A stretch of DNA of 64,000 nucleotides from Desulfuromonadales bacterium (GCA_013349405.1 DUZS01000004.1:94726-158725), one strand, 5' to 3'. Positions 12,922 through 45,610 are shown, numbered from the stretch's first letter. Program-made: numbers and translations. The notes: generated by a model not told the origin, from the sequence alone.

Positions 12922-13782
12922 TTATTTTTTGTCATGTTCCTTGTCTTTGTCATGTTCTTTATCGCTGTCATGGTCTTTATCGTGGTTGTGCTCTTTGTCA
13001 TGATCGTGGTCGCGGCCGCAATTATTATGGTCTACCGGAGGATCTACCGGCGGCAGTACCGGTCCGGAACCACTGCAGGCTGATACTGCAACACCGGTCA
13101 ACGTCGAGCCGGCTTTTGCCAGATCGCGGCCCATCAGGCTACCTCCGGTGAATGTGCTGGCAGCTCCTGACAGAAGGGTTCCCTGAAAGTTGGAAGTTGT
13201 CATTGTTGCAGCCTCGGCAGCCCACCAATATACGTTGCAGGGATTTCCGCCACCGGACATGACCACCGAGAAGTTTGTTCCGGTCAAAGCACCGGTTCCG
13301 AGTGTTCCGACCTTGAAAATCCATTCCCCGTTTGCAGGTCCGTCAAGCGTTAACTGGCCGGTGAGAGTCGCTGCAGCATCAAAACAATACACGTTCGGCG
13401 CCAGCACCTGGTTGGTGAGATCACCGGACAAGGTTACATTACAGGGCACTTGTGCAAACAGATCGTAGCCGACGAGAAAATCACTGTATGCAGCAATAGC
13501 ACTTGCATCTGCCTGGTGAATCGTCCCGGTAACAGGACTGGTTGTTTGTGTGACGGTGCTGAATGGTAGTCCGGAGCCAACATCACCAGTAACGGTTGAA
13601 TCGGTGAGGGTCACAGCCGTTCCGCCAAGAACGGCAAATGATGCGGAAGTTCCCAATGCCGGTGCGGCTTCAGCGATTCCCGTGTGGAACGGTGCGGCGG
13701 TAAGAAACAGTGACGAAAATGCCAATGCGCCGAGTTTTACTGAGAGTTTACGGAAAATATCCACCTTGATCTGTTTTTTCAT
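12922..13782 (-). CDS. secreted DUF3494 (ice-binding-like beta-helix) protein with a His/Asp/Lys-rich C-terminal tail
   Basis: Signal peptide, then LGTSASFAVLGGTAVTLTDSTVTGDVG ... NVYWWAAEAATMTTSNFQGTLLSG. Tail reads DHDHDKEHNHDKDHDSDKEHDKDKEHDKK. GGAGA sits upstream of ATG 13782. Confidence 0.8.
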   Translation of the reverse strand: MKKQIKVDIFRKLSVKLGALAFSSLFLTAAPFHTGIAEAAPALGTSASFAVLGGTAVTLTDSTVTGDVGSGLPFSTVTQTTSPVTGTIHQADASAIAAYSDFLVGYDLFAQVPCNVTLSGDLTNQVLAPNVYCFDAAATLTGQLTLDGPANGEWIFKVGTLGTGALTGTNFSVVMSGGGNPCNVYWWAAEAATMTTSNFQGTLLSGAASTFTGGSLMGRDLAKAGSTLTGVAVSACSGSGPVLPPVDPPVDHNNCGRDHDHDKEHNHDKDHDSDKEHDKDKEHDKK

Positions 13783-13912
13783 TGTTGTTGTCTCCATTAA
13801 ATTTGGTAATAAATCACTGAACATCCTATCTCCCTTTTTCCTGTCATTTTCTCACACTTCTCCTATGTCACAGTTTGATGAAAGTCCTATGATTGGCCGA
13901 CCTGCCGGGCTC

Positions 13913-14119
13913 TCAATGCTCCCATCTATTAGTGCTGATACTATTATTGCTTCCCGGTTTTGGTATGAAATTTTTCACTGCACGCCTGTCAGGTGAATGC
14001 CCTTTCTGATACTCAGTCGTCGGATCATTTCCTTTGTAATAACCTGTGCCCGGGTCCTTCTCCTTGTGCTGATCTGTCCCTGATTCGTTTTTGTTGAGAT
14101 GCTTTGTACTTTTGTCCAT
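13913..14119 (-). CDS. small hydrophilic protein (68 aa), unknown function
   Basis: AAAGGAG lies 9 nt upstream of the ATG, about 50 nt downstream of the predicted sigma-54 transcription start. The sequence is Lys/Asp/Gly/Thr-rich with no TM segment. Confidence 0.4.
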   Translation of the reverse strand: MDKSTKHLNKNESGTDQHKEKDPGTGYYKGNDPTTEYQKGHSPDRRAVKNFIPKPGSNNSISTNRWEH

Positions 14120-14183
14120 GTGTCTGTACTCCTTTCAGGTTGAAGTGAGTTGCTCTGATTATTTTCGTTCTGGGTATGTATCA

Positions 14184-14200
14184 GGCAACTACCATGCCAG
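14184..14200 (-). promoter_or_regulatory. sigma-54 -24/-12 promoter candidate
   Basis: Minus strand reads CTGGCAT-GGTAG-TTGCC. Confidence 0.7.
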
Positions 14201-14445
14201 AGATCTTTCATCCGTTATGAATGTCGTAAGCTACTTATATTGCTTATTAAATATAATTCTAACGTGTCTGGTGACGGAAAAACCGTATCACGATCCCGTC
14301 ACGCAGAATAAAAACCGCTAAATATGGCAGTTAACCTGTAATGGTACGGATTCCAATGGTGGTTGAAATCGTGCAATGTCGCACTACATACTATTTTCCC
14401 TTTATATTCAATCTGTTGCGCATTTTTAAACTGCTTGATTATCTA

Positions 14446-14461
14446 TGGCACGGTAGTTGCG
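14446..14461 (+). promoter_or_regulatory. sigma-54 -24/-12 promoter candidate
   Basis: TGGCAC-GGTAG-TTGCG. It overlaps the track ORF start at 14457, so the real start is the SD-preceded ATG at 14532. Confidence 0.75.
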
Positions 14462-14964: not shown

Positions 14965-14971
14965 AGTAAAT

Positions 14972-15961
14972 CTACACGTTATTGCTGTTCTGACGCCTCT
15001 TCACGTATATTACCAAACCAAGAAGACCACTGCCTAAGAGCATCATTGTGCCCGGTTCCGGAACCGGAGCAGAGGTTCCGCCGTCACTTACACTTCCACC
15101 GCCACCGCCGCTGAGACCGTCGCTGCCGAAGTCTTTGCTGTCGAGATCGTTGCTGCTGAAGTCGGAACAGCCATTTCCGGTACCCTGAGCGCTGCTGTTG
15201 GAGATGCGATTGTCTGTCATTGTCACTGCACCGGTGAGGGCAACGGCTCTCCCGCAGAGAATTTGTGCCGTCGGATCGAGGCCGACACTAGCAAGAGCAA
15301 GAATATTGCCCTCAAAAGTAGAACCTGAACCGAGAGTTGCCGAACTACCTACCCGCCAGTACACACCGTTCGTCGAATTTCCGTTGATGACAGACACCCT
15401 TGAAGCGCTTGCGGTTGTCAGGGTACTCCCGATATTGAATACGAAGTCTGCATCGGAAACGTTCTGGAAATCGAGAACCAGATTTCCGTTCAACTGTGCC
15501 GAAGAATTAAAATTATAGACTCCGGCGGTAAGTGTCGAGTGACCCGCAGAGCCGAGGATAAAACCGGTGTAATCTGCTGTCATTGCCATGCCGGCAAGCA
15601 TGTTGTATGCAGTTCTTGCATCGGCCAGAGCTGTTTGTGCAACCCCGTCGTTTGTATGAATTGTGCCGCCGCTCACGGCTCCATCAGGATAAAAGCCGGT
15701 GATCGCACTCCCGGGAGTCACACCCAGATTCCCGAAAATTGTTGTGGTTGCGTTCGGCGCGCTGTGACCGTTGGTAACGGTAGCGGCACCTAAAGCCGCA
15801 AAACTCTGTGCCGAACCGAGTATCGGTGTGGCTTCTGCAATAGTCGGGGAAAAGGCTGTCAACAGCGGCACGACAGCGAAGAGTGACAGGAACGTACATT
15901 TTACTTTCGCTGCAGTGACATAAGTAAATATGCTGCATGGTTTTTTAGATTTTTTTTTCAT
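14972..15961 (-). CDS. DUF3494 (ice-binding-like) protein with a PEP-CTERM sorting signal
   Basis: LGSAQSFAALGAATVTN...GVYWRVGSSATLGSGSTFEGNILAL. The C-terminus is VPEPGTMMLLGSGLLGLVIYVKRRQ (PEP motif, TM, basic residues). GGAGA lies upstream of ATG 15961. Confidence 0.85.
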   Translation of the reverse strand: MKKKSKKPCSIFTYVTAAKVKCTFLSLFAVVPLLTAFSPTIAEATPILGSAQSFAALGAATVTNGHSAPNATTTIFGNLGVTPGSAITGFYPDGAVSGGTIHTNDGVAQTALADARTAYNMLAGMAMTADYTGFILGSAGHSTLTAGVYNFNSSAQLNGNLVLDFQNVSDADFVFNIGSTLTTASASRVSVINGNSTNGVYWRVGSSATLGSGSTFEGNILALASVGLDPTAQILCGRAVALTGAVTMTDNRISNSSAQGTGNGCSDFSSNDLDSKDFGSDGLSGGGGGSVSDGGTSAPVPEPGTMMLLGSGLLGLVIYVKRRQNSNNV

Positions 15962-16193: not shown

Positions 16194-16212
16194 CTGCCGC
16201 TGATATATACTT

Positions 16213-16229
16213 ATCAACAAGCGTGCCAG
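16213..16229 (-). promoter_or_regulatory. sigma-54 -24/-12 promoter candidate (PEP-CTERM DUF3494 gene)
   Basis: Minus strand reads CTGGCAC-GCTTG-TTGAT (the -12 box is GA rather than GC). 24/25 identical to 24895-24911 and its flank. Confidence 0.6.
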
Positions 16230-16323: not shown

Positions 16324-16357
16324 CTGTCACATATGATTTTTCTGTTACATGCGGCGG
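16324..16357. promoter_or_regulatory. shared upstream box (candidate enhancer/UAS)
   Basis: CTGTCACATATGATTTTTCTGTTACATGCGGCGG lies about 100 bp from the minus promoter and about 100-130 bp from the plus promoter. Confidence 0.4.
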
Positions 16358-24186: not shown

Positions 24187-24194
24187 AGCCGCCA

Positions 24195-31240: not shown

Positions 31241-31330
31241 CGTACTGATACGTGGCAACCTGGCTGTCTCTGAGAGATCCTGTAGGCTTTCCGTCCCATC
31301 CTCGCGGATGGTTTAGTAGTATCGTGTACC
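31241..31330 (-). ncRNA. GEMM-I (c-di-GMP-I class) riboswitch aptamer with the A20, cGAMP-type (GEMM-Ib) signature
   Basis: Minus-strand RNA reads GGUACACGAUACUACUAAACCAUCCGCGAGGAUGGGACGGAAAGCCUACAGGAUCUCUCAGAGACAGCCAGGUUGCCACGUAUCAGUACG. It has the conserved AAACC-stem-GNRA(GCGA)-stem-GGGACG.AAAGCC core, a swapped G21-C46 pair (C...G), and a closing stem GUAC/GAUAC with GUAUC/GUAC. Confidence 0.75.
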
Positions 31331-31475: not shown

Positions 31476-31492
31476 AGCAACGAACGTGCCAG
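31476..31492 (-). promoter_or_regulatory. sigma-54 -24/-12 promoter candidate (riboswitch leader plus DUF3494 gene)
   Basis: Minus strand reads CTGGCAC-GTTCG-TTGCT. The leader to ATG 31087 is about 375 nt. Confidence 0.75.
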
Positions 31493-31570: not shown

Positions 31571-31619
31571 TCTGTCACGCGTATCTGTTGTAATTAACAG
31601 AAGTGTAATATGCGGCGGG
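31571..31619. promoter_or_regulatory. upstream box (candidate enhancer/UAS)
   Basis: CTGTCACGCGTATCTGTTGTAATTAACAGAAGTGTAATATGCGGCGG, about 80-130 bp upstream of the -24 box. Confidence 0.4.
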
Positions 31620-34215: not shown

Positions 34216-37200
34216 ACGTGTCCTTTTGTTTTTGCGTAGTTAAGTGCGATGTTCAGTGTATCCATAAATTTATCGACGTTGATCGGTTTGGTGAGGTAGC
34301 GAAAGAACCCGGCTTTCAGTCCCATTTCGATATCGCGCGGCATGGCATTGGCACTGAGCGCCACCACCGGTATGTGGGCGGTGGTCTGATCAACCGCCAG
34401 GATTTTCATGGCGTCAATGCCGCTGATACCGGGCAGATTGATGTCCATCAGGATGACATCCGGCAGAGAGGCGCGCGCCAGCTCAATACCGCTTTTGCCG
34501 TTCCGGGCCGTCAGCAGGCGGATATCCGGTCGGCGGGCAATAATATCCTCAACCAGCATCATATTGGCCGGATTGTCCTCGACATAGAGGAGCGTCTGCG
34601 TTGGTGCGTCACCTTCTTTGTGCCCCATGACCGCTGTCATCGTTCCGGATGAATAGGCGGGAGCGTGCGGTTTTGCCATCAGGCTCATCTCTATCCAGAA
34701 GACACTCCCCACGCCAACGGTACTTTCCACGCCGATGACACCCCCCATCAGCTCAACGAGGCGTTTGGACACGACCAGTCCGATACCGGTTCCCTGTTCG
34801 CCGCTCGATTCCTGTCCAAGACGATTAAACGGCTGGAAAAGCTGGGCAAGCTGTTTTGGAGTGAGTCCTGCCCCGGTATCCCGAACGTTGATCCGAACCG
34901 ACTCCGTGCCGTTCACAACGCTCTCCACCAGCACCGTTCCGCCCGCTCTGTTATATTTGATCGCGTTGGAAAGAAGATTGATGAGCACCTGTTTGACCCG
35001 TGTTCGATCCGCCTCGATAAAGCAGGGGAGAGCGAATTCTTGAAAGGTCACGCTGATGGCATGTTTTATCGCCTCTGGTTCGATCATGGTCTCACATTCG
35101 TGCATGACTTCAGGCAGGGAAACCGGTTCCAGCGACATGGAAAGTTTGCCTGACTCTATCAAGGCGAGGTCGAGGATCTCGTTGATTAACTCGAGCAGGT
35201 ACCAGCCGGCCTTGAGAATCTGATCGATGCTGCGCTTCTGGTTTGGGGTCGGCTGAGGTGAACCGGATTCCACGAGTTGGGCAAAGCCGAGGATCGCACT
35301 GAGCGGCGTGCGCAGCTCATGGCTCATACTGGAGAGGAAATCCGATTTTGCCAGGTTGGCTTTTTCCGCGACAAGCGTGGCACGCTCCAGTTCGATGTTT
35401 TTATCCTGCAGTACCTGTTCGAGCCGGACACGTTCGGCTTCAACCAGCTTGCGAGCGGTGTTGTCGGTGCCGATCAGCAGGTATCCGATGATAGCATTAT
35501 GGACATCGCGCAGAGCCGTTACCGACACGACCGCCGGAAAACGGCTGCCATCCTTGCGGATATAGGTCAGTTCGTAAATATCCTCAATGCTGCGCGAAGC
35601 CTTGAACACCAGAGCCTCAAAACCGGGCGCGATGGCGGTGCCGAGTTCGGAACTCAAGGTCTCGGCACGCAAAATAACTTCCTGCGGATCGGAAATTTCG
35701 GCCGGGGTGATCTTGTTCATCACTTCTGCGGCCGTGTAACCGAGCATCCGCTCTGCGCCGACATTAAAGATCTGGATAACCCCCTTGGCGTCGGTGGCGA
35801 TACTGGAGAAGTTGGCGCTGTTAAAAATCGCACTTTGCAGCGCCCCCGCTTTGACCAGGGCCTCTTCCGCCAGCTTGCGAGCCGATATATCGCGCAAAAT
35901 TCCGGTGAAGTAGCGCTGCCCTCCCATCCACATCTCGCTGGCTGCAAGCTCCAACGGGAAATAGCTGCCGTCTTTACGTTTCCCCATAACTTCGCGACCG
36001 TGGCCACTGGCACGAGCCGCTTCACTCGCGCTGTAATATTCGAGAGAACCGTCGCGTTGATCCTGATCGAGCTCAGGAATCAGCAGACTGAAGTTCTGAC
36101 CTTCGAGTTCTTTAGCCGTATAGCCGAACATCAGTTCAGCCGCAGGATTAACCGTTTCAACGAGAGCGCCGTGTGCATGAATGGTGATAATTCCATCCAC
36201 CACGGTATTGAGAATCGCCCGCATCAGCGCGGCACTGTCACGCATCGATTGCTGCACCAGGTATTCCTCGGTGACATCACGGAACACCAGCACGGCGCCG
36301 ATCACCTGATCTTCGCGGTTGCGGATCGGGGAGCAGCTGTCAGCAATATCATATTCGCTGCCATCGCGGGCAATCAACACGGTGTGGTTGGCCAGGCCCT
36401 GGGACGTGCCATGGAGAATGGCAGCCATTATCGGGATAGGTGCGGGGAGTCGGGTCTCTTTATTGACAATGTGAAAGATCTCGTCTACCAGGTGCCCGGA
36501 AGCTTCAGCTCCACTCCAGCCGGTGAGCTGTTCGGCAACCGGATTCATGCGGGTTATCCGCGCTGTGTCATCGGTTGCTATTACCGCATCGCCGATGGAG
36601 TTGAGCGTTACGGCAAGCTGCTCTTTGCTGTCCCGCAGGACGGTCTCAAGCTGCATGGCGAGCTCTCGTGCCTCGCATAACGATTCGTTCTGCATCTCCA
36701 GTTCGACCTGGGATGTTTCCAGTTCCTGCTGGGAGCGTTGCAAATCAGTGTTCTGCGCCTCCAGTTCGTACTGGGAAATCTCCAGCTGAGCTAAAAGTTT
36801 CCGCGTTTTTTCATCGTTTTCCTGTAATGACACGTTGGCCTGTGCCAGTTGTGTATTTGAATCTTTCTGAATCTCAAGCAGATGCTCTGTTTCAAGATGA
36901 ACGATATCTTTAAGCCGCTGCTTGGATTCTTTATAGATCAGATAGGCGAACGCAAGTGCCAGCAGTAGCGTCATCAGACTGGCGAAAGCAATGGCGGCAA
37001 AAAGCATACGCAGTTTAGATTGAAATTCCGCTTCGCTTTGCAGCAGCACTCCCTGCTTTTTGCTGAAGCTGTCGATCTCGGCGCGAATCGAATCCATAAG
37101 CGGCTTACCCTGCATGCCGCGTATATTTACTAATGGGGCCGCAAGGTTGCCGGCGCGACGCAACTCGATATTTTTAGCGAAATATGCCAGTTTCGTATCA

Positions 37201-37535
37201 ATCAATGGCACCAGTGCATCCAGATTTTTATCGGCACCACTCATCCGGGGCGTTTGGCGTAATTGTGCCAACCGGACTTTGACCGTATCGCGTACCGCCA
37301 GGTACGGCTGCAGAAAGCTTTCCTCTCCGGTTAACAGATAGCCCCGCAGGCCGGTCTCGGCATCCAGTAATTCGGATTGCATCTCGCCTGTGAGGCTTAT
37401 TACTGTGGAGATCTGCCTGCGTGCTTCGGCAGCAGTTGCGATCTGGCGGAAAGAGTGGAAGGTTAGCGACACAACCAGCACAACCATAAGCGCCAGTCCG
37501 ACAAGTAAGCAGATAATTTTAGTACTGTATTTCAT
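34212..37535 (-). CDS. hybrid sensor histidine kinase (CHASE3, TM, coiled coil, 3 PAS, HisKA, HATPase and REC)
   Basis: CHASE3 motif ETGLRGYLLTGEESFLQPY, H-box SHELRTPLSAILGF, GTGIGL, REC DVILMDINLPGISG. Start set at ATG 37535, after the upstream stop at 37552. Confidence 0.9.
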   Translation of the reverse strand: MKYSTKIICLLVGLALMVVLVVSLTFHSFRQIATAAEARRQISTVISLTGEMQSELLDAETGLRGYLLTGEESFLQPYLAVRDTVKVRLAQLRQTPRMSGADKNLDALVPLIDTKLAYFAKNIELRRAGNLAAPLVNIRGMQGKPLMDSIRAEIDSFSKKQGVLLQSEAEFQSKLRMLFAAIAFASLMTLLLALAFAYLIYKESKQRLKDIVHLETEHLLEIQKDSNTQLAQANVSLQENDEKTRKLLAQLEISQYELEAQNTDLQRSQQELETSQVELEMQNESLCEARELAMQLETVLRDSKEQLAVTLNSIGDAVIATDDTARITRMNPVAEQLTGWSGAEASGHLVDEIFHIVNKETRLPAPIPIMAAILHGTSQGLANHTVLIARDGSEYDIADSCSPIRNREDQVIGAVLVFRDVTEEYLVQQSMRDSAALMRAILNTVVDGIITIHAHGALVETVNPAAELMFGYTAKELEGQNFSLLIPELDQDQRDGSLEYYSASEAARASGHGREVMGKRKDGSYFPLELAASEMWMGGQRYFTGILRDISARKLAEEALVKAGALQSAIFNSANFSSIATDAKGVIQIFNVGAERMLGYTAAEVMNKITPAEISDPQEVILRAETLSSELGTAIAPGFEALVFKASRSIEDIYELTYIRKDGSRFPAVVSVTALRDVHNAIIGYLLIGTDNTARKLVEAERVRLEQVLQDKNIELERATLVAEKANLAKSDFLSSMSHELRTPLSAILGFAQLVESGSPQPTPNQKRSIDQILKAGWYLLELINEILDLALIESGKLSMSLEPVSLPEVMHECETMIEPEAIKHAISVTFQEFALPCFIEADRTRVKQVLINLLSNAIKYNRAGGTVLVESVVNGTESVRINVRDTGAGLTPKQLAQLFQPFNRLGQESSGEQGTGIGLVVSKRLVELMGGVIGVESTVGVGSVFWIEMSLMAKPHAPAYSSGTMTAVMGHKEGDAPTQTLLYVEDNPANMMLVEDIIARRPDIRLLTARNGKSGIELARASLPDVILMDINLPGISGIDAMKILAVDQTTAHIPVVALSANAMPRDIEMGLKAGFFRYLTKPINVDKFMDTLNIALNYAKTKGHV

Positions 37536-37551
37536 GGTGGAGGTTCCTTGG

Positions 37552-40251
37552 TCACGCATTCGCTTCAAGCATCGCCTGCAGCCGTACGTTCTCCGCCCGC
37601 AGTTCCGCTTCCAGAGTCTTGGTTGCGGTGATGTTGGCAAAGGTAATTACCACACCGGAAATGACGTCATCCATGGTGCGGTATGGCATGATGCGTACCG
37701 AAAACCAGCGATTGTCGGTGGTGGTGATCTGTTTTTCCGAAAAGATCAGCGTACGGTGTACCTGACGCGAGTCCTCGATAATGTCGGGATAGTTGAGGTC
37801 GTTGACGATTTCGGAAAGAGGTCGGCCGATATCAACGGTACGCAGCTTGAATATGGTATCAGTCCCGCTGGTGAAGCGCCGGATATGGAGATCATTGTCC
37901 AGAAATACGGTCACGATTTCGGTACTGTTGAGCAGGTTGCGCATATCGTTGTTGACCCGCGCAAGCTCGTCCATTTTCGACTGCTGCTCGGCGTTCACCG
38001 TCTGTAGCTCTTCATTCAGTGACTGCATCTCCTCCCTCGAAGTGGTCAGCTCTTCGTTGGTGGATTGCAGCTCTTCGTTGGTTGACTGTAGTTCCTCATT
38101 GGTAGATTTAAGCTCCTCCTGGGAGGATTGCATCTCTTCGCGGTTGGCCTGGAGCGTTTCCCGGAACTGACGTTGTTCCTGTTCCAGTTCGAGCACCCGG
38201 GCGCTGCTGATTGAAGGGGGGCCGTCATGATTCGACGGAGCATGAACCTGGATGGGCGATGACACGTCGCGGAAGATGATCATGACCATCCCGCGCAGCG
38301 CTTCCGGTTCTTCGACGGACTGAACGGTGATGTCAACCGATTGTGCTGCATCACCTTTGCCCACCGTGAGACCCTTGGCCATGACGGTCTCTTTGAGTCG
38401 GACCGCTCTCTGGAACGCACTGCCAAGATCAGAACGAAGCCCTTCACGAGCCATTGCAAAAATATTCCAGTTGGCTTTTCCGGCGGCAGGTTCCAGGTAT
38501 TTGCCGGTTTTGCCACTGATATAGAGAATATCACCGCTTTCATTGGTCAGTACGGCGGGTGGTGAAAACTGCTGCAGAAGCAGATTGTCGGCCAGTGACT
38601 GCAGGTTGACAGCCGGTTTTACCATCGGCAACTCCTTTGAGGTTCCGTGAAAAGCGGGAACAAACGAGGCGGGAAATGCAAGCGGCTCTAACTGTATGAC
38701 GGACTCCCGCCGCTGGAAGAAGCGCGACTTGACGTTCAATGGTGCAAAAAGGTGCGTATAGGTGCTGATGGTTTCGGCACTCCCCAGAAACAGGATGCCG
38801 CCCGGTGCAAGGCTGTAATGGAAGAGCGGCATGAGCTTTTTCTGCAGTTCCGGTGTCAGATAGATGAGCAGGTTACGGCAGATGAGGATATTCAGCCGTG
38901 TAAATGGGGGATCCATGATGATGTTCTGTGTGGCAAAGGTCACGACATCGCGGATCTCCTTGCTGACCCGGTAGCCGTTTTCCTCCTTGATAAAGAACCG
39001 TTTCAGCTGTTCGTCGGCAACATTCTCGCTGATGGTGAGCGGATAGAACCCATGACGGGCCTTGTCAATCGAATCGTTATCCAGATCGGTGGCAAAAATC
39101 TGCAGCGAAAAATTTTCAGACGGTCTGACCTGTTCCAGCGCCATCTTGAAGGCGATGGCCAGCGAGTAGGGTTCCTCTCCGCTTGAACAGCCGGCCGACC
39201 ATGCCCGCAGAATCCCGCCTGACGGGTGCGCGGCCAACAGCGCCGGTATGCCTTCCTTGATCAGATATTCCCATGACTCGGGGTCGCGAAAAAAGCTCGT
39301 CACACCAATCAACAGCTCTTTGAAGAGAATTTCCACCTCCTGGGGGTTCTCCCGCAGGTAGCGGACATACGCCCCGATCCGGTCAATCTGGTGGACACTC
39401 ATGCGCCGCTCAATGCGGCGCTGCACAGTGTTTTTCTTGTACAATGAGAAGTCACTGCCGGTCTTGGCCCGCAGGAGGATGAGGACCTTCTCCAGGGCGC
39501 TTTGATCTTTCTCCTCCAGCGGTGGTTCACTCCTGGTAATGACCAGGGTGTGGTGGAGATAGGCGATGATCTTGCCCGGCAGCTCCTCGGCCGGGGCGAC
39601 AATATCTGCTACCCCGGCATTAATGGCGCTTTTCGGCATGCTGTCGAATTTTGCTGAAGCCGGCTCCTGTGCCAGGGTCACGCCACCATGCTCTTTAATC
39701 GCCGTGAGCCCCAGCGTGCCGTCCGAACCCATACCGGAGAGGACAACTCCAATGGCACCATCCGTGCGATCATCGGCTAAAGAGTGGAAGAAAAAATCGA
39801 TCGGAAGCCGGAGACCACGCGCTGCCGCCGGTTCAAACAGGTGCAGCACGCCGTGCAGGAGGGACATGTCCCTGTTGGGCGGGATGACATACACGCAGTC
39901 CGGTTGAACCTTCATCTGATCTATGACCTGAAAAACCTTCATCCCGGTAACCCGCTGGAGCAGCTCAGGCATGATCCCCTTGTGGGTTGGATCCAGGTGC
40001 TGAATGATGACAAAAGCGCAGCCGCAATTTTCCGTCACATGCCGCAGAAACTGTTCCAGCGCCTCAAGTCCACCGGCAGAGGCACCGATGCCGACGATGG
40101 GGAAGGGGGCTTCCGGAATGCTTTCACAGGAAGCCGGTTCGTGGGCATTTCCACGTCTGGTCATTTTAGTTCGCACTTTCATACGGTTACCATAACAGTA
40201 TTCCGGCGAATGCACTAATTTATTGTGTGGAGCCCCTCCCGCGCGGTTCAT
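37552..40251 (-). CDS. CheB methylesterase/CheR methyltransferase fusion with a coiled coil and C-terminal PAS
   Basis: VGIGASAGGLEALEQFL, VIIQHLDP, the CheR SAM region ILRAWSAGCSSGEEPYSLA, STNEELQ x3, then PAS. Confidence 0.85.
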   Translation of the reverse strand: MNRAGGAPHNKLVHSPEYCYGNRMKVRTKMTRRGNAHEPASCESIPEAPFPIVGIGASAGGLEALEQFLRHVTENCGCAFVIIQHLDPTHKGIMPELLQRVTGMKVFQVIDQMKVQPDCVYVIPPNRDMSLLHGVLHLFEPAAARGLRLPIDFFFHSLADDRTDGAIGVVLSGMGSDGTLGLTAIKEHGGVTLAQEPASAKFDSMPKSAINAGVADIVAPAEELPGKIIAYLHHTLVITRSEPPLEEKDQSALEKVLILLRAKTGSDFSLYKKNTVQRRIERRMSVHQIDRIGAYVRYLRENPQEVEILFKELLIGVTSFFRDPESWEYLIKEGIPALLAAHPSGGILRAWSAGCSSGEEPYSLAIAFKMALEQVRPSENFSLQIFATDLDNDSIDKARHGFYPLTISENVADEQLKRFFIKEENGYRVSKEIRDVVTFATQNIIMDPPFTRLNILICRNLLIYLTPELQKKLMPLFHYSLAPGGILFLGSAETISTYTHLFAPLNVKSRFFQRRESVIQLEPLAFPASFVPAFHGTSKELPMVKPAVNLQSLADNLLLQQFSPPAVLTNESGDILYISGKTGKYLEPAAGKANWNIFAMAREGLRSDLGSAFQRAVRLKETVMAKGLTVGKGDAAQSVDITVQSVEEPEALRGMVMIIFRDVSSPIQVHAPSNHDGPPSISSARVLELEQEQRQFRETLQANREEMQSSQEELKSTNEELQSTNEELQSTNEELTTSREEMQSLNEELQTVNAEQQSKMDELARVNNDMRNLLNSTEIVTVFLDNDLHIRRFTSGTDTIFKLRTVDIGRPLSEIVNDLNYPDIIEDSRQVHRTLIFSEKQITTTDNRWFSVRIMPYRTMDDVISGVVITFANITATKTLEAELRAENVRLQAMLEANA

Positions 40252-40405: not shown

Positions 40406-40421
40406 TGGCGGACTAATTGCT
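40406..40421 (+). promoter_or_regulatory. sigma-54 -24/-12 promoter candidate (Ig-like/DUF3494 lipoprotein operon)
   Basis: TGGCGG-ACTAA-TTGCT. The leader to ATG 40685 is about 265 nt. Confidence 0.55.
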
Positions 40422-40684: not shown

Positions 40685-42751
40685 ATGAATAAAAATAAAC
40701 TCGTAACAAAGATGCGTTATCTGATGTTGCTCACCGTCGCGTTTGTGGCCGGATGTGCAAGTAATGGCCAGGAAATTCCGCTGATTCCTGCTGACACTAT
40801 CGCACCCACGGTGAGCTTTACGGCGCCGGATAGCGCTCAAACCGCCGTTCCTGTCAACCGGAAAGTTTCTGTTGCTTTTAGTGAGGCAATGAACCAGTCA
40901 ACACTCACTGCGGCAACGTTCAAAGTTTCCGGTCCGGGCCTGACGCCCGTGCCAGGTGCAGTCACCGGAGTTGGTCCGACAGCAATCTTTACGCCGACAA
41001 CAGCATTCTCTAACAGTACTCTCTATACCGCCACGATTACCGTTGGTGCCAAAGATCCTGCCGGTAATGCGCTGGCTGCAAACTATTCATGGACCTTCAC
41101 CACAAGCGCAATCGCTGACGTTATCAAACCGACGGTCAGTTTCACCGCGCCGATTACCGGCCAAACGGCTGTTCCCACAAACCGGATAATCCACGTAGCG
41201 TTCAGCGAGGTAATGGATCCTTTTACAATTATCGGAGCAAACGTTACGTTGACAGCCCCGGGTGCTGTTCCTGTTGCCGGAACTGTTGAGGGTATCGGAA
41301 CATCTGCCACCTTCACGCCGACCAGCGCACTGGCCAACAACACGTTGTATACCGCTACGGTCAAAACCGGTGTTAAAGACCTGGCAGGTAATACCATGGC
41401 AAGTAACTATGTCTTTACCTTCACGACAGGTCTGGCCGCAGACACAACACGTCCGACGGTAAATGTCACATCACCGACCGACACCGCAATAGCCGTGCCA
41501 CTCAACCGGAAAGTAAGCGTCGGCTTCAGTGAGGTGATGGATCCATTAACGATCACCACGACTTCATTTACGTTAACTGGCCCGGGTGTAACTCCCGTAG
41601 TGGGAACAGTTGCTCCAAGTGGTACGTCAGCTGTCTTTACGCCATCCAGTAATCTTGCCTACAGCACTCTCTATACCGGTACGATTACCACTGCAGCCAA
41701 AGACCTGGCCGGCAATGCCCTGGCAAGTAACTTTGTCTTTACCTTCACAACCGGTACACTTGCAGATAGTACAGCTCCGATCGTGGTGACGGTGAACCCC
41801 GCTGATCTCGCAACTGATGTGGCGATAAACAGCGCCGTTCATGCAACATTCAACAAGGATATGGATCCTCTGACCTTCAGCAGCACAACCTTTACGCTGC
41901 AGACATCCGGCCCGCCATTAGGTGTTCCCGCTGTAACAGGAGCGGTTACCTATAACACGCTGACCAAAATAGCCACTTTCACACCGGCAGCGGATCTCGC
42001 CGTCGACACGAAATATACTGCAACCGTTACAACCGGAGTCAAGGATCTGGCCGGTAATGCCCTGACAAGTGACAAGGTCTGGAGCTTTACAACAGCCGCC
42101 GCAATTGTCCCGCCGCCTGTTAACAATACTCACCTTGGTTCGGCAGCAGCCAACGGGATCATGGCAACCTCCTCAATTTCCAGTACCGGCCCTTCTGTCG
42201 TTAATGGTGATGTTGCCATGGAACCGGGCACTGCCAACGGTTTGCTGCCATCACAGGTAAACGGTACAATCAATCTGAATAATGCAATATCACACCAGGC
42301 CTATGCCGACCTGCTGATCGGGTATAATTACTACAAAGCCCTGCCATCGGGAACGATCATCACAGCCGGTGCAGATCTGGGTGCGTTATACCCGTTAGGT
42401 ATTCCACCGGGTACCTATACATCGGGAAGTACGATGTCAATCGCTACTCCTCTCAAGCTTGATGCGGGCGGTAACCCGAATGCCGTGTGGGTATTTCAGA
42501 TCGGCTCCTCACTGACAACGACCACGCCGTTAGGTAATGTTCAACTCCTCAACGGTGCAAACCCCAACAATGTGTTTTGGGTTCCTACTGCGTCAGCGAC
42601 TATCGGAGTCGGTACCACCTTCTACGGTACTGTTATTGCCGGTGTAACTATCACCGGTCAGACCGGTGCCACCATTAACGGTCGATTGTTGGCCGGGGCA
42701 ATCGGTGCCGGCGTAATTACGCTGGATAGCAATGTTGTTACCGTTCCGTAA
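40685..42751 (+). CDS. lipoprotein with four SbsA/Big_5-type Ig-like repeats and a C-terminal DUF3494 (ice-binding-like) domain
   Basis: Lipobox FVAGC. Four approx. 100-aa repeats (D..PTV.FT.P...V..N..I.V.FSE.MD..T......L...G..V.G.V......A.FTP...L...T.YT.T......DLAGNAL). The C-terminus is LGSAAANGIMA...NVFWVPTASATIGVGTTFYGTVIAG. Confidence 0.85.
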   Translation: MNKNKLVTKMRYLMLLTVAFVAGCASNGQEIPLIPADTIAPTVSFTAPDSAQTAVPVNRKVSVAFSEAMNQSTLTAATFKVSGPGLTPVPGAVTGVGPTAIFTPTTAFSNSTLYTATITVGAKDPAGNALAANYSWTFTTSAIADVIKPTVSFTAPITGQTAVPTNRIIHVAFSEVMDPFTIIGANVTLTAPGAVPVAGTVEGIGTSATFTPTSALANNTLYTATVKTGVKDLAGNTMASNYVFTFTTGLAADTTRPTVNVTSPTDTAIAVPLNRKVSVGFSEVMDPLTITTTSFTLTGPGVTPVVGTVAPSGTSAVFTPSSNLAYSTLYTGTITTAAKDLAGNALASNFVFTFTTGTLADSTAPIVVTVNPADLATDVAINSAVHATFNKDMDPLTFSSTTFTLQTSGPPLGVPAVTGAVTYNTLTKIATFTPAADLAVDTKYTATVTTGVKDLAGNALTSDKVWSFTTAAAIVPPPVNNTHLGSAAANGIMATSSISSTGPSVVNGDVAMEPGTANGLLPSQVNGTINLNNAISHQAYADLLIGYNYYKALPSGTIITAGADLGALYPLGIPPGTYTSGSTMSIATPLKLDAGGNPNAVWVFQIGSSLTTTTPLGNVQLLNGANPNNVFWVPTASATIGVGTTFYGTVIAGVTITGQTGATINGRLLAGAIGAGVITLDSNVVTVP

Positions 42752-42863: not shown

Positions 42864-44459
42864 ATGAAAAAACTACTGAAGGGAACATTGGCAGGCCTGC
42901 TGCTTGTCACTCTCACAACCCCCGGATATGCCGAAAACAGAAAGGGGTCAGGCAACTTGTCGCCATTCGTCGGCGGCTATGTTCTGGACAAGGAGCAACG
43001 CGAAGAGAGTCGTCCGATGTTCGGTCTGCGCGCCGGTTACAACTTCACCAAAAACCTCGGTATCGAGGGGATGTTCGGCTACAGCCTCACTGAAACGAAG
43101 CGGGGGATCAATGGCTCGAGGGAAACCGACCTGTATCGCTATGGCGGCGAATTCCTCTACCATTTCATGCCGGACGGTAAATTCGTACCGTTCATTGCCG
43201 CAGGCGGCGGCGGCACCAGCTTCATCATACCTCAGACCCCCAGCCTGCAGAACCACTCTGCCTATCTGGTCGATTACGGCGGCGGTTTTAAATACTTCGT
43301 TGCTCCGGATGTTGCACTGCGGGCCGACGTGCGCCACGCAATTCTTATCCACGACACCGGCGACAACAATGTTGAATATTCGGCCGGTCTGACTTTTCAG
43401 TTTGGCGGTGTGAGAAAAACGGCTGCAGCAATTGCTGCGGTTGAAGATACCACCATACCGACCGTAATATTCACGGCACCGGTTAATGGCGCCACTATGG
43501 TGTATGTCAATCAGAAAGCCAATGTTGCCTTTAGCGAAGATATGGATACAACAACGATCAACACAGAATCTTTCACTCTGAAGCAGGGGTCGACACCGGT
43601 ATCAGGGTCGGTGACAGCAACCGGTTCAACGGCAACCTTTACTCCGTTATACAATTATGAAAAAGGTAAGGTCTACACCGCTACAGTTACTACCGGGGCC
43701 AAAGACCTTGCCGGCAACAGACTGGCAAACAACTATATGTGGGAATTCAATGCCGGTCAGGCTGCAGATACAACCGCACCGACAGTGATGTTTACCTCAC
43801 CGGTCAGGGGCGATAATACGACGCCGGTCACTCAGAATGTCAGCGCAGCCTTCAGTGAAAATATGGATCCGGTGACGATCAATGCTGCCACCTTTACCGT
43901 AAAACAGGGTGAAACTCCTGTTTCAGGCAAGGTAACGTCAAACGCCTCAACAGCAACCTTCACCCCGGCGCGGAACTTTGAAAAAGGGAAAGCCTACAGC
44001 GCTACTGTTACCACCGGAACCAAAGACCTGGCCGGAAATGCCCTGGCAAAAAACTATATGTGGGACTTTAAAGCATATCAGGCACCGAAGGTTATCGGTG
44101 TATTGGCCACACTCGAAAATTCACATTTTGACTTCGATAGTGCTGCCATCAGCGAAAACGGTAAAACAATCCTCAACCATAATGCCGTGTCGTTGAAAAA
44201 GAACACTAATATGAAACTTCGCATTGTGGGACATACCTCGGCATCTGGTTCTGAGGAGTATAATCAGGATCTGAGCGAAAGAAGAGCCGAATCAGTCAAA
44301 GAGTACCTCGTTAAAACCGGTGGTATTGAGAGCAGCAGACTCTCCACAATCGGCTTCGGTAAAATGAGACCGATTAAGCATGAAGCTGACCCCTCGGATA
44401 AATTGTCGGCTGAAGCGTACGCCAATATGCGCGTCGTTATTGAGATCATCGAAGAGTAG
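42864..44459 (+). CDS. outer-membrane beta-barrel, two Big_5 Ig-like repeats and an OmpA C-terminal domain in one protein
   Basis: Signal peptide. Barrel-like N-terminus (GLRAGYNFTKNLGIEGMFGYS...). Two repeats homologous to the upstream gene. The OmpA_C motif is read as LRIVGHTSASGSEEYNQDLSERRAESV. Confidence 0.8.
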   Translation: MKKLLKGTLAGLLLVTLTTPGYAENRKGSGNLSPFVGGYVLDKEQREESRPMFGLRAGYNFTKNLGIEGMFGYSLTETKRGINGSRETDLYRYGGEFLYHFMPDGKFVPFIAAGGGGTSFIIPQTPSLQNHSAYLVDYGGGFKYFVAPDVALRADVRHAILIHDTGDNNVEYSAGLTFQFGGVRKTAAAIAAVEDTTIPTVIFTAPVNGATMVYVNQKANVAFSEDMDTTTINTESFTLKQGSTPVSGSVTATGSTATFTPLYNYEKGKVYTATVTTGAKDLAGNRLANNYMWEFNAGQAADTTAPTVMFTSPVRGDNTTPVTQNVSAAFSENMDPVTINAATFTVKQGETPVSGKVTSNASTATFTPARNFEKGKAYSATVTTGTKDLAGNALAKNYMWDFKAYQAPKVIGVLATLENSHFDFDSAAISENGKTILNHNAVSLKKNTNMKLRIVGHTSASGSEEYNQDLSERRAESVKEYLVKTGGIESSRLSTIGFGKMRPIKHEADPSDKLSAEAYANMRVVIEIIEE

Positions 44460-44494
44460 AAACATCCTGTTTCATCACCAGTAAGCATGGTGGA

Positions 44495-44530
44495 GGCCCG
44501 GCGGAATTGAAAATCTGCCGGGCCTTTTAA
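44495..44530 (+). terminator. intrinsic terminator
   Basis: GGCCCGGC-N14-GCCGGGCC followed by TTTTAATT. Confidence 0.75.
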
Positions 44531-44722
44531 TTCCTTACCCACCTCAGAATATAATTCCTTCATCTCCCATCAACTGGCATCGGCAATTTAGAATTCCACC
44601 ATATGTAGCGGCATGTCTGAATGTGGCGGGTGTATGTGACGGATTTTCCGTATTATCGAATAGTAAGTCTTTAATTAATAACAATAACAGTATGTTACCG
44701 AATATGAAGATGAGTCGTTTAT

Positions 44723-44738
44723 TGGCTCGATAGTTGTA
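44723..44738 (+). promoter_or_regulatory. sigma-54 -24/-12 promoter candidate (weak -12 box)
   Basis: TGGCTC-GATAG-TTGTA. The promoter and about 30 nt of leader are homologous to 45849 onwards. Confidence 0.5.
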
Positions 44739-44797
44739 ATACTACAGGTATCGACAGGCCGTAGAGTCTGTAAAAAAAATGAAAGAGGAGTTTACCA

Positions 44798-45610
44798 ATG
44801 AAAACGAATGTACGTAACAACAGGTGGTTCACAGCAGTATTTCTGGCGGCCGTATCAATGGCCGTAGCACTGACAGGATGCGGAGGCGGCGACGGAGGAA
44901 ATAATACACCAGTGGCGGGACCCAACACCGGGCCGTCAGCAGTTCAACTTGGAACAGCCGGAAATTATGCGATTTTTGCAGAGACAGGGGTGGTCACTAA
45001 TCCGAATCCCTCAGTAATTACCGGAAATATCGGCACCGGACCAGGGGTCACCTCTTCTGCCATTACCGGATTTGCTCTTACTTTGCCGGCAGCTGGAGCC
45101 TTTTCGACTTCAGCCCAGGTAACCGGAAACATCTATGCCTTCGATTATGCAGCGCCGACCCCGGTTAACGTGACCACCACTTCAGCCGACATGGGTACAG
45201 CGTACACTGATGCTGCCGGACGTCCTGCAGGAGTCGGTCCCTTCCTGAACGTCGGGGCAGGAACCGTCAGTGGTAAAACACTTGCTCCGGGTACCTACAC
45301 ATGGACAAGTGCAGTTACGATACCGACAGATCTCACACTTAACGGAAGCTCGAATGATGTCTGGATTTTCCAGATTGCCGGAACTCTCGACATGGCCGCA
45401 GCCAAAAAAGTCATCCTCAGCGGTGGTGCTCTGGCCAAAAACGTATTCTGGCAGATTGCCGGAGCTGTATCCATCGGTGCAGACACGGAGTTCAAGGGTA
45501 ATGTTATGGGTAAAACTGCAATCACCCTGGGTAACAAAGCGAAAATCGACGGCAGACTGCTGGCGCAAACGGCGGTTAATCTTAATGGCACAACGGTGAC
45601 AAAACCGTAA
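44798..45610 (+). CDS. DUF3494 (ice-binding-like) lipoprotein
   Basis: Lipobox ALTGC. LGTAGNYAIFAETGVVTN...KNVFWQIAGAVSIGADTEFKGNVMGKTAITL. Confidence 0.85.
   Translation: MKTNVRNNRWFTAVFLAAVSMAVALTGCGGGDGGNNTPVAGPNTGPSAVQLGTAGNYAIFAETGVVTNPNPSVITGNIGTGPGVTSSAITGFALTLPAAGAFSTSAQVTGNIYAFDYAAPTPVNVTTTSADMGTAYTDAAGRPAGVGPFLNVGAGTVSGKTLAPGTYTWTSAVTIPTDLTLNGSSNDVWIFQIAGTLDMAAAKKVILSGGALAKNVFWQIAGAVSIGADTEFKGNVMGKTAITLGNKAKIDGRLLAQTAVNLNGTTVTKP

Follow-up and report, generated by a model that had tools for sequence, protein, structure and literature searches.

Five exported DUF3494 proteins in a Desulfuromonadales bacterium, four of them in one predicted sigma-54 regulon and one behind a GEMM-I riboswitch

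Results

Five DUF3494 proteins of one fold and several placements

The 64-kb stretch of Desulfuromonadales DNA analyzed here (64,000 nucleotides; the window) encodes five exported proteins, IBP1 to IBP5, which are right-handed beta-solenoids of the IBP-1/DUF3494 fold, defined by a beta-solenoid of triangular shape with a single long alpha-helix as its brace (Table 1). The five-gene set is a known family in regulatory variant form, and four of its members (IBP1, by way of a leader ORF, IBP2, IBP3 and IBP5) belong to what we predict from their upstream regions to be a single sigma-54 regulon. Based on homology and gene neighborhood, we tentatively favor ice as the ligand and freeze-thaw protection as the role, with a probability of roughly 40%.

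All five ORFs match Pfam PF11999 Ice_binding (E 6e-24 to 4e-66), with scores of 85.2 (IBP1), 154 (IBP2), 163.4 (IBP3), 132.7 (IBP4) and 223.1 bits (IBP5) against a gathering cutoff of 28.7 bits. A phmmer search across all 452 ORFs of at least 60 amino acids found exactly five DUF3494 genes in the window, and their coordinates agree with the gene calls of the public record GCA_037134735.1. The HMM search thus bears out the five paralogs proposed in an earlier, sequence-only reading of this DNA, while the core motif that it gave for all of them holds approximately, with deviations in IBP1 (NVYWWA), IBP2 (FGNLG and GVYWRV) and IBP4 (NGDVA and NVFWVP). The ORFs are all intact and carry export signals. 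Their pairwise identity is only 28-41%, indicating ancient subfamilies rather than recent duplicates. When scored with the NCBIfam ice-binding equivalog NF045625 (IBP_CFB), IBP5 reaches 220.5 bits and the other four 47-62 bits, all far below the curated cutoff of 400 bits.

The fold assignment rests on an AF2 model for IBP1, on 53% identity over the core to the crystallized ice binder PDB 4NU3 for IBP5 (E 5.5e-66, aligned end to end), and on sequence only for IBP2 and IBP4. The IBP1 model has a pLDDT >90 over residues 40-235, with a helix at 93-110 plus stacked strands and a disordered tail, and all of its significant Foldseek matches (31/31, TM 0.75-0.86) are ice-binding (DUF3494) structures. 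The IBP3 model is partly confident (pLDDT 65), its N-terminal half giving no clear fold. More than 514 relatives of IBP3, at 57-85% identity and from several phyla, are present among GTDB species representatives; IBP5 has more than 7,400 homologues, one of them from the polar alga Phaeocystis antarctica, and is also close to TisAFP and the Cryosericum IBPs.

Outside the cytoplasm, the predicted placement differs among the five proteins. IBP1 and IBP3, with a Sec signal only, are expected to be free secreted proteins. IBP4 and IBP5 would be lipid-anchored, as judged by lipoboxes read straight from the translations (pattern [LVI][ASTVI][GAS]C; contexts ...LLTVAFVAGC and ...SMAVALTGC, respectively), and IBP4 would stand on a four-domain Ig-like stalk (Big_5, 303 bits over four stretches). 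IBP2 is a predicted exosortase/PEP-CTERM substrate: its C-terminus VPEPGTMMLLGSGLLGLVIYVKRRQ combines the PEP motif, a transmembrane helix and a basic cluster, and scores 30.3 bits with PF07589 (cutoff 20.7) and 21.6 bits with TIGR02595 (cutoff 16). The annotation of the window shows no exosortase (EpsH/XrtA). IBP1 ends in DHDHDKEHNHDKDHDSDKEHDKDKEHDKK, a tail whose His/Asp/Lys composition is kept across the IBP1 subfamily (homologues at 60-93% identity), and a second protein with a His-rich tail is encoded near the DUF3494 genes at 45877-46245. The OmpA-type protein encoded downstream of IBP4 is its probable operon partner, and the two share a 62-nt Big_5 repeat family (phmmer E 1e-50). On these points the sequence-only reading was accurate, both in the anchoring modules that it listed (the His/Asp/Lys-rich tail, the PEP-CTERM signal, and two lipoproteins, one with four Ig-like repeats) and in its proposals of display at different envelope depths and of two nearby proteins with His/Asp tails.

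Table 1. Features of the DUF3494 island, in coordinates of the window
Feature	Position	Strand	Description
IBP1	12922..13782	-	Sec signal, DUF3494 core, Pro-rich linker, His/Asp/Lys-rich C-terminal tail; PF11999
68-aa hydrophilic ORF	13913..14119	-	Between sigma-54 promoter and IBP1; called gene in GCA_037134735.1
Sigma-54 promoter, 68-aa ORF and IBP1	14184..14199	-	TGGCATGGTAGTTGCC; 2 mismatches; 114 bp to upstream-site centre
Palindromic upstream activator site	14296..14330	.	Common to divergent promoters 14184(-) and 14446(+)
IBP2	14972..15961	-	Sec signal, DUF3494 core, Gly/Ser/Asp linker, PEP-CTERM sorting signal
Sigma-54 promoter, IBP2	16213..16228	-	TGGCACGCTTGTTGAT; -12 element TTGAT non-consensus; 112.5 bp to upstream-site centre
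Upstream activator site	16324..16357	.	Common to IBP2 promoter and divergent PAP2-operon promoter (16454+)
IBP3	30206..31087	-	Sec signal, short His-rich N-terminus, DUF3494 core; PF11999
GEMM-I aptamer, IBP3 leader	31251..31327	-	RF01051 c-di-GMP-I, 39.7 bits (gathering score 35)
Sigma-54 promoter, riboswitch and IBP3	31476..31491	-	TGGCACGTTCGTTGCT; perfect consensus, 0 mismatches
Upstream activator site, IBP3	31585..31618	.	PWM match outside training set; 110.5 bp from promoter
NtrC-family response regulator/sigma-54 enhancer-binding protein	32665..34215	-	Response_reg, Sigma54_activat, HTH_8
CHASE3/PAS hybrid histidine kinase and CheB-CheR-PAS fusion	34212..40251	-	Operon with enhancer-binding protein
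Weak sigma-54 promoter candidate, upstream of IBP4	40406..40421	+	TGGCGGACTAATTGCT
IBP4	40685..42751	+	Lipoprotein (VAGC), four Big_5 Ig-like repeats, C-terminal DUF3494
OmpA-type protein	42864..44459	+	OM beta-barrel, two Big_5, OmpA peptidoglycan-binding domain (Pfam, NCBIfam)
Upstream activator site, IBP5	44596..44629	.	Kept in L091
Sigma-54-like promoter, IBP5	44723..44738	+	TGGCTCGATAGTTGTA; -12 element TTGTA non-consensus; upstream site correctly spaced
IBP5	44798..45610	+	Lipoprotein (LTGC), Gly-rich linker, DUF3494 core of classical ice-binder clade

A sigma-54 regulon with a shared upstream site

The window contains 16 matches to the sigma-54 consensus, compared with 2.5 expected. Many of the promoters are accompanied by an upstream site, a 34-bp inverted repeat with the half-site CYGYCAYATNT, whose centre lies ~113 bp upstream of the -24 element; upstream-site pairs number 14, against ~1 in simulated sequence, and 6-7 of them fall outside the training set. 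For 12 of 13 upstream sites, a sigma-54-type promoter is found 103-133 bp away, mostly at 110.5-114.5 bp, which amounts to ~17 promoters. The palindrome stands 110-114 bp upstream for IBP1, IBP2, IBP3 and IBP5 as well as for 13 other promoters, five times in the 64 kb a single site lies between two divergent promoters, +/-113 bp away, and an IHF-like AATCAGA-N4-TTG element is located between upstream site and promoter. The sequence-only reading had assigned each DUF3494 gene its own sigma-54 promoter. This holds for the IBP1 unit, for IBP3 and, with -12 elements that depart from the consensus, for IBP2 and IBP5, with IBP1 being the second gene of its unit because the promoter lies upstream of the 68-aa ORF; it does not hold for IBP4, which has a weak candidate and before which no regulon upstream site was found. 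Nor are these promoters specific to DUF3494 genes, given the ~17 promoters with one type of upstream site in 64 kb.

The same geometry is present in five related genomes (L007, L009, L087, L089 and L091). A small ORF likewise precedes the IBP1 orthologue in L089, the IBP5 promoter is conserved as TGGCACGATAGGTGTA in L091, and the arrangement of site and promoter before IBP3 in L007 and L009 matches that of the window. Other genes predicted to be co-regulated are a CsbD-BON-cyclic-glucan synthase group (the BON protein being OsmY-like and the synthase a cyclic beta-1,2-glucan synthase), those of five OmpA-type tethers, of ion transporters and of lipid enzymes (phospholipid and lipid A), and those of Usp and DnaK. 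By its content, the regulon looks like one of general or envelope stress.

The island also encodes an NtrC-type response regulator that is generic for its family, scoring under every equivalog cutoff, including that of PrsR; its gene adjoins IBP3 in L087 as it does in the window. We propose that this regulator would bind the 34-bp site and that the adjacent CHASE3/PAS hybrid kinase would control it. IBP3 may additionally require a cyclic dinucleotide, probably cGAMP, via the A20 GEMM-I aptamer in its leader, and the need for both regulon activation and the dinucleotide would make its expression an AND gate. As a canonical Asp-type cyclase, the GGDEF protein of the island does not qualify as a cGAMP synthase.

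A GEMM-I riboswitch in the leader of IBP3

The aptamer sits between the perfect sigma-54 promoter and IBP3, matches RF01051 over its full length (model positions 1-87) and is the sole Rfam match in the window. With model position 11 of RF01051 taken as the presumed equivalent of Vc2 G20, the window aptamer and that of L009 have an A, and that of L034 a G, as the unpaired nucleotide on the 5' side of the first P1 pair. An A at position 20 is the signature of the GEMM-Ib, or cGAMP, class (PMC6140456, PMC6456294) and gives cGAMP selectivity in Geobacter (PMC6456294); for some natural A20 aptamers, binding of both ligands has been described (PMC6140456). The ligand of the IBP3-leader aptamer would be a cyclic dinucleotide, probably cGAMP as far as the sequence tells. 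The earlier proposal of a cGAMP-type riboswitch before one paralog is supported by a match above the gathering score and by A at position 20. Its link to insoluble Fe(III) oxides is supported too, in that growth of Geobacter on Fe(III)-oxide particles is tied to cGAMP, which is needed for their reduction (PMC6456294).

No canonical intrinsic terminator was found 3' of the window aptamer; those of L009 and L034 have a clear one that overlaps the 3' strand of P1. The sigma-54 promoter is kept upstream of IBP3 orthologues. The riboswitch is limited to two lineages before IBP3, being missing from the 87%- and 85%-identical orthologues, from other Geobacteraceae orthologues, and from 39/40 IBP3-like and 20/20 IBP4-like loci scanned. 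In another Geobacterales MAG, a c-di-GMP-class GEMM-I element lies upstream of a Big_5-DUF3494 gene. In Geobacterales, both classes of cyclic-dinucleotide riboswitch are found before DUF3494 genes. We found no association of a GEMM-Ib riboswitch with a DUF3494 gene in the literature searched.

Conservation of the island

The gene set of the island is conserved in GCA_028688955.1, where the combination of IBP1, IBP2 and IBP3 recurs with the same neighbors. In L091, the pairing of IBP5 and IBP1 recurs, and between the two orthologues lies a cluster of a porin and 5-, 3- and 10-heme (MtrC-like) cytochromes, preceded by the upstream site and sigma-54 module. The window itself holds no multihaem cytochromes and no classical cold-shock genes, and GC content is uneven along the island. 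Three observations point to a mineral rather than to ice, namely, the cGAMP-class riboswitch, the conserved His-rich tails and the cytochrome conduit in the regulon of a relative.

Discussion

We chose ice because it is the only ligand shown for the DUF3494 fold and for the close relatives of IBP5; all solved structures with this fold are, to our knowledge, those of ice binders. In the proposed mechanism, the flat face of the solenoid would let the proteins adsorb to an extracellular ordered solid. An envelope response to freezing, desiccation or osmotic stress explains the co-regulated genes more readily than respiration does. An antifreeze role had been called unlikely in the sequence-only reading, which does not agree with the identity of IBP5 to 4NU3, with the Foldseek matches of the IBP1 model, or with neighbors that are general or envelope stress genes, including dnaK, in a window without cytochromes. 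Counting against ice are the frequent occurrence of the family in habitats that do not freeze (PMC11645318, PMC7783341), the lack of classical cold-shock genes in the window and the scores of all five proteins far below the equivalog cutoff, besides the three observations that point to a mineral. The five proteins need not share a common ligand.

Alternatively, the solenoid faces, with help from His/Asp tails, might adsorb to crystalline particles, of Fe(III)/Mn(IV) oxide or of another kind, and so keep the cell, or proteins that it secretes, at the surface while it is attached transiently, under cGAMP signalling, for extracellular electron transfer. Such mineral binding is speculation, and we consider it rather unlikely. 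It would account for the A20 aptamers in the IBP3 leader and L009, given the cGAMP requirement of Fe(III)-oxide reduction (PMC6456294), for the conserved tail of the IBP1 subfamily and its His-tailed neighbor, and for the regulon module on the cytochrome cluster of L091, and it is consistent with the c-di-GMP-class element before a Big_5-DUF3494 gene. Members of the family are also known from caves, groundwater and sediments, and substrates other than ice, minerals among them, were proposed by Raymond and co-workers in 2021 and 2024 (PMC7783341, PMC11645318), so that calling this function undescribed for the family was an overstatement. However, no DUF3494 member is known to bind a mineral, the window lacks multihaem cytochromes, the riboswitch is missing from the 85-87%-identical and other Geobacteraceae orthologues and from nearly all loci scanned, the window aptamer lacks the terminator of its L009 and L034 counterparts, and the island GGDEF protein is of the canonical type. 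The presence of dnaK, csbD, usp and BON genes in the regulon and the kinship of IBP5 with proven ice binders also speak against it.

The solenoids could instead attach to ordered polymers made by the cell itself, such as exopolysaccharide, periplasmic or cyclic glucans, or an LPS/S-layer lattice. They would then have no crystalline inorganic ligand and would have a structural or adhesive part in a protective coat or biofilm that stress induces. This possibility, which we regard as unlikely, agrees with the tie of PEP-CTERM proteins to EPS-producing systems (Haft 2006, as cited in PMC7783341), with the cyclic glucan synthase and OmpA-type peptidoglycan tethers of the regulon, including a Big_5-bearing partner for IBP4, with riboswitches of both dinucleotide classes, and with the spread of the IBP3 subfamily over many phyla of soil and freshwater bacteria. 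Yet glycan binding has no known precedent for the DUF3494 fold, Pfam finds a carbohydrate-binding domain in 0/5 of the proteins, and the conserved metal-chelating tail is left unexplained. Finally, the five genes might be unrelated horizontal acquisitions with different or no current functions, their shared promoters merely reflecting a sigma-54-rich genome. While low mutual identity, the known horizontal transfer of the family (PMC7783341) and the uneven GC content would fit, we judge such a coincidence quite improbable, since gene combinations recur in GCA_028688955.1 and L091, the site and its 113-bp spacing are kept before orthologues in five other genomes, and all five ORFs remain intact with export signals. 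Ice thus remains our preferred, if tentative, reading.

Comparison with known systems

In NtrC-type sigma-54 regulons, an upstream activator site is combined with an IHF bend, and sigma-54 controls the bacterial exterior. The predicted regulon shares with them -24/-12 promoters, a palindromic site ~110 bp upstream with an IHF-like element between, a nearby response-regulator activator gene and envelope-related targets. It differs in that one site serves two divergent promoters, five times, in that the targets are general-stress genes plus DUF3494 genes, and in that the activator matches no named equivalog. Similarly, the IBP3 leader has the GEMM-I fold and A20 of the Geobacter GEMM-Ib riboswitches (pgcA/GSU1761, Gmet_0970), likewise in Desulfuromonadales and upstream of a gene for an extracellular protein (PMC6456294, PMC6140456), whereas here that gene encodes a DUF3494 protein, a canonical terminator is lacking and ligand selectivity is predicted.

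Among solved structures, IBPv (PDB 5UYT) is the best relative of IBP1 (E 1e-24), and the IBP1 model superposes on EfcIBP (PDB 6EIO) at an rmsd of 1.8 A (TM 0.82); identity to both is only ~30%, and IBP1 adds four conserved Cys and the His/Asp/Lys tail. EfcIBP is the best solved relative of both IBP2 (E 8e-30) and IBP4 (E 6e-30), again at ~30% identity, to which IBP2 adds the PEP-CTERM signal and IBP4 the Ig-like stalk. IBP2 shares the order of DUF3494 core and PEP-CTERM with nIBP of Nostoc sp. HG1 and other such proteins, for which association with the surface or EPS has been proposed (PMC7783341, PMC11645318); ice-binding activity was measured for nIBP, from an Antarctic host, whereas IBP2 is known here from sequence alone. 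IBP4 resembles SfIBP_1 of Shewanella frigidimarina (PDB 6BG8), a proposed ice adhesin, in placing tandem Ig-like beta-sandwich domains before DUF3494, but has Big_5 repeats, a lipobox and a downstream OmpA-type protein with the same repeats, and its DUF3494 domain matches 6BG8 at only E 1e-17. Compared with the classical ice binders FfIBP, LeIBP, TisAFP and the Cryosericum IBPs (4NU2, 4NU3, 3UYU, 3VN3, 9LHN), IBP5 scores 220 bits where the NCBIfam equivalog asks for 400; it is a lipoprotein with putative ice activity, encoded in the MAG of an anaerobic member of the Desulfuromonadales and expressed from a predicted sigma-54 promoter with an upstream activator site. It has the same fold and keeps strands of the T-A-x-T/N type at its C-terminal coils (TAIT, TAVN).

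Five DUF3494 proteins with different predicted placements outside the cytoplasm

The five DUF3494 genes of the window (IBP1 to IBP5, numbered by coordinate) coincide with called genes of GCA_037134735.1 (contig JBAXLQ010000003.1), and all five products match Pfam PF11999 (Ice_binding) at 85-223 bits, at a cutoff of 28.7 bits, which confirms the family membership proposed in the sequence-only reading. The core motif quoted there fits the five proteins only approximately, and the NCBIfam ice-binding equivalog cutoff is reached by none of them. A phmmer search of all 452 window ORFs of at least 60 aa recovered just these five and no sixth DUF3494 gene. Since pairwise identities are 28-41%, we regard IBP1-5 as ancient subfamilies and not as recent duplicates. 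The export and anchoring modules claimed for the paralogs are all borne out and predict distinct placements (table below), and the metal-chelating His/Asp/Lys tail is conserved within the IBP1 subfamily. The Big_5 repeats of IBP4 and of the outer-membrane protein encoded 3' of it belong to one 62-nt repeat family, suggesting that the two form a matched stalk pair.

Features of the window, ordered by position
Feature	Position	Strand	Description
Cyclic beta-1,2-glucan synthase	1-10622	(-)	GH94 synthase (~3,055 aa, partial, runs past window start) with the CsbD, BON and BrkB-family genes of its apparent operon
IBP1	12922-13782	(-)	Sec signal, Pro-rich linker, 35-residue His/Asp/Lys tail
IBP2	14972-15961	(-)	PEP-CTERM, over both curated cutoffs
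47-nt element, three copies	16154-16200, 24146-24192, 24834-24880		GC-rich hairpin (CCAGGGGC...GCCCCTGG); 81-100% identical
GGDEF protein	23149-24021	(+)	Membrane protein; last gene of Usp and P-type cation ATPase unit with sigma-54 promoter at 19571
IBP3	30206-31087	(-)	Sec signal only
c-di-GMP-I aptamer	31251-31327	(-)	Between perfect sigma-54 promoter and IBP3
195-aa protein	31727-32314	(-)	Own upstream site and sigma-54 promoter; N-terminus LEIQTLGRFSISNEGKPV
120-aa gene call	40276-40638	(-)	Called in NCBI record; overlaps intergenic region between IBP4 and kinase operon
IBP4	40685-42751	(+)	VAGC lipobox, four Big_5 repeats
Outer-membrane protein	42864-44459	(+)	Beta-barrel, two Big_5 repeats, OmpA peptidoglycan-binding domain
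IBP5	44798-45610	(+)	LTGC lipobox
His-tailed protein	45877-46245	(+)	122 aa, secreted; His/Lys/Asp-rich tail (KHYKYDKHHENNGRGKGHDKHDRHDR); own upstream site and sigma-54 promoter
332-aa protein	46454-47452	(+)	Secreted, next after His-tailed gene; long Gln/Arg/Glu/Pro-rich low-complexity C-terminal half; no family match
Upstream site of dnaK	61947-61980		112.5 bp from TGGCGTGGTAATTGCG
dnaK (Hsp70)	62161-64000	(+)	Runs past window end

Sequence matches in the PDB are, for each of the five proteins, to ice-binding proteins only. The closest relationship is that of IBP5, which matches 4NU3 with an E value of 5.5e-66 (53% identity over the core) and TisAFP and the Cryosericum IBPs at 1e-60 or better, and which has more than 7,400 homologues, one of them from Phaeocystis antarctica. 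For IBP1, the weakest Pfam match of the five, the AlphaFold model is confident in its core (pLDDT above 90) and disordered in the tail, and all 31 significant Foldseek matches to it are DUF3494 ice binders (TM 0.75-0.86, rmsd ~2 A), the next match following at an E value of 0.3. The IBP3 model (pLDDT 65) is poorly predicted in its N-terminal half and too uncertain for an analysis of its faces.

A shared upstream site connects four of the genes to a predicted envelope and stress regulon

Allowing at most one mismatch, the sigma-54 consensus occurs 16 times in the window versus 2.5 times expected, and several matches form divergent pairs ~242 bp apart with a 34-bp inverted repeat (half-site CYGYCAYATNT) midway between them. 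A position weight matrix trained on seven copies of this repeat, the candidate activator site referred to here as the upstream site, yielded 14 site pairs in the window versus ~1 in simulated sequence, and all newly found pairs lie within promoter regions. A sigma-54-type promoter is located 103-133 bp away from 12 of 13 sites, mostly at 110.5-114.5 bp. Altogether, ~17 sigma-54 promoters (10607-62091) have this palindrome in common, and the distance from its centre to the -24 element is ~113 bp; at 10.7, 14.3, 16.3, 25.0 and 61.4 kb (approximate positions, five in all) one site is positioned midway between two divergent promoters, and in several cases an IHF-like AATCAGA-N4-TTG block separates site and promoter. 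With its 17 promoters and five sites that each serve a divergent pair at +/-113 bp, the regulon lends itself as a clean natural model for the geometry of sigma-54 enhancers. We rejected recent duplication or mobile elements as the source of these repeated modules, which are only ~66% identical; what is conserved in them is limited to promoter, IHF-like block and upstream site. The 47-nt hairpin elements all sit at gene ends beside promoter modules and are thus terminator- or REP-like.

Upstream site and promoter precede orthologous genes at the same spacing in five related genomes (L007, L009, L087, L089 and L091), and the gene set of the island, the region of the window that carries the regulon, is found again in GCA_028688955.1. 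At 10902-17050 of L091 (JGI 3300045973 contig Ga0485830_0000026), the module is followed by a putative porin (413 aa) and 5-, 3- and 10-haem MtrC-like cytochromes, a cluster flanked by orthologues of IBP5 and of IBP1, the latter His-tailed. IBP3 orthologues of other Geobacteraceae (L008, L010-L014, L016, L017, L019, L021) keep the sigma-54 promoter (TTGGCAGGCTAnTTGC) and have a different palindrome upstream (CCTCAA-N4-TTGAGG), implying a different activator for the same gene in those lineages. The expectation that each paralog has its own sigma-54 promoter holds for IBP3 and, via a 68-aa leader ORF, IBP1, and probably for IBP2 and IBP5, which have the upstream site but a -12 element that deviates from consensus; it is not borne out for IBP4, which has no upstream site and only a weak candidate promoter, and whose relatives from the metagenome scan, used to compare promoter conservation, are ~42% identical to it.

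Besides these four DUF3494 genes, the targets of the regulon comprise CsbD-BON-BrkB-cyclic beta-1,2-glucan synthase, AI-2E/PerM with a CDP-alcohol phosphatidyltransferase, PAP2-DUF3943, an OmpA-like lipoprotein, Nramp, STAS with a HATPase protein, DUF4398 with an OmpA protein, the His-tailed 122-aa protein and dnaK. CsbD, a protein with two BON domains, a BrkB-family protein and the glucan synthase appear to be encoded in one sigma-54 operon, and the upstream site and TGGCGTGGTAATTGCG before dnaK bring a chaperone into the regulon. Taken together, these features show IBP1-5 as predicted exported proteins of the IBP-1 fold that have distinct placements and, IBP4 aside, share their predicted regulation with envelope and general-stress genes.

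The island also encodes an NtrC-type response regulator, together with a CheB-CheR fusion and a hybrid kinase of the CHASE3/PAS type. The response regulator, whose gene keeps its position beside IBP3 in a relative, may be the protein that binds the upstream site. Its identification as PrsR, the PEP-CTERM-box regulator, was rejected (346 bits versus a cutoff of 502.6), and no named equivalog matched it. Between the candidate activator gene and IBP3 lies the gene of the 195-aa protein, a placement kept in L087; its N-terminus resembles SARP/OmpR-type winged-helix regulators, and no family model matched it. The 120-aa gene call is probably spurious, given its odd composition and the lack of any family match.

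A predicted cGAMP-class aptamer before IBP3

The aptamer before IBP3 is the sole Rfam match in the window. The unpaired nucleotide directly 5' of its first P1 pair is an A, at an Rfam model position that we take to correspond to Vc2 position 20. An A at position 20 is the mark of GEMM-Ib riboswitches, which are selective for cGAMP, and the exchange A20G brings back selectivity for c-di-GMP (PMC6140456, PMC6456294). In the window, the aptamer lacks a canonical terminator 3' of it; the IBP3 orthologue of L009 has an A20 aptamer too, with a clear terminator. Across 40 IBP3-like loci from GTDB genomes, 3 close-relative loci and 20 IBP4-like metagenome loci, GEMM-I was found in L009 and L034 only, and it is absent from L087 (87% identical IBP3 orthologue), L007 (85%), other Geobacteraceae orthologues and 59 further loci, which led us to reject a general association between riboswitches and DUF3494 genes. 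Given this distribution, cGAMP control of IBP3, by a putative mechanism, is plausible but would be lineage-specific.

In L034 (1934-5497, Geobacterales MAG Co_metawrap_2320), a G20 GEMM-I of the c-di-GMP class with a terminator precedes a Big_5 x2-DUF3494 gene (516 aa), 3' of which lies a gene for a lipoprotein of 555 aa that combines three repeats with a further DUF3494 domain; a third DUF3494 gene (L025) is located ~2.5 kb upstream. The GGDEF protein of the island was rejected as a Hypr cGAMP synthase: the residue at its selectivity position (GHAGGDTLL) is Asp, as in canonical cyclases, and its predicted product is c-di-GMP, not cGAMP.

Ice, mineral or matrix as possible ligands

For the ligand of these proteins, we infer a ranking with ice first, minerals or particles second and a matrix or envelope polymer third. 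To our knowledge, ice is the ligand of every characterised DUF3494 member; IBP5 is closely related to such proteins and the regulon reads as one of envelope and general stress, and for these reasons we assign a probability of about 0.4 to ice as the ligand, with a role in freeze or osmotic protection. The same closeness of IBP5 to proteins that all bind ice argues against the earlier dismissal of an antifreeze role. Mineral or particle binding is in our view unlikely. It is backed by circumstantial evidence from the aptamer with A20, the chelating tail conserved in the IBP1 subfamily and the L091 cytochrome cluster under the same upstream-site/sigma-54 module, but a search for cytochromes in the window found none, and the canonical Asp-type cyclase of the island also speaks against it. 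A matrix or envelope polymer is a still less probable ligand.

It is tempting to speculate that the DUF3494 solenoids of Desulfuromonadales are modules that bind Fe/Mn-oxide surfaces and act alongside cytochrome conduits of the outer membrane, with a sigma-54 activator and cGAMP riboswitches jointly controlling their deployment. We consider this combination improbable; if true, it would provide the first non-ice ligand of a very large fold family and add to extracellular electron transfer a missing component that holds particles. The ice and mineral hypotheses would be told apart by the signal that fires the regulon, which may be cold or freezing, osmotic stress or contact with particles.

Comparison with known DUF3494 systems

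DUF3494 ranks high in size among the "ice-binding" families, its bacterial members come mostly from places with little ice, and sets of several isoforms are already described; we know of no non-ice function ever shown for it. In the literature searched, we found no cyclic-dinucleotide riboswitch on a DUF3494 gene, no DUF3494 member of a defined sigma-54 regulon, no His/Asp/Lys-tailed subfamily and no relevant publication on DUF3494 in Geobacter or on GEMM with ice binding. The locus thereby offers handles on the non-ice question, with four divergent subfamilies wired to one sigma-54 upstream site, a cGAMP-class aptamer on one subfamily, a chelating tail on another and the cytochrome conduit in the regulon of a relative, and a demonstrated non-ice ligand would sharply raise its significance. 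Mineral or other substrates have already been suggested for DUF3494 members of non-icy habitats (PMC7783341, PMC11645318, PMC12337378), and the mineral-binding interpretation made from the sequence alone is supported in part, losing both its claim to a function undescribed for the family and its view of an antifreeze role as unlikely. PEP-CTERM DUF3494 proteins like IBP2 are likewise described (PMC7783341, PMC11645318), as are adhesin candidates with Ig repeats (SfIBP_1, PDB 6BG8). Within this known family, the locus represents a variant in regulation and architecture.
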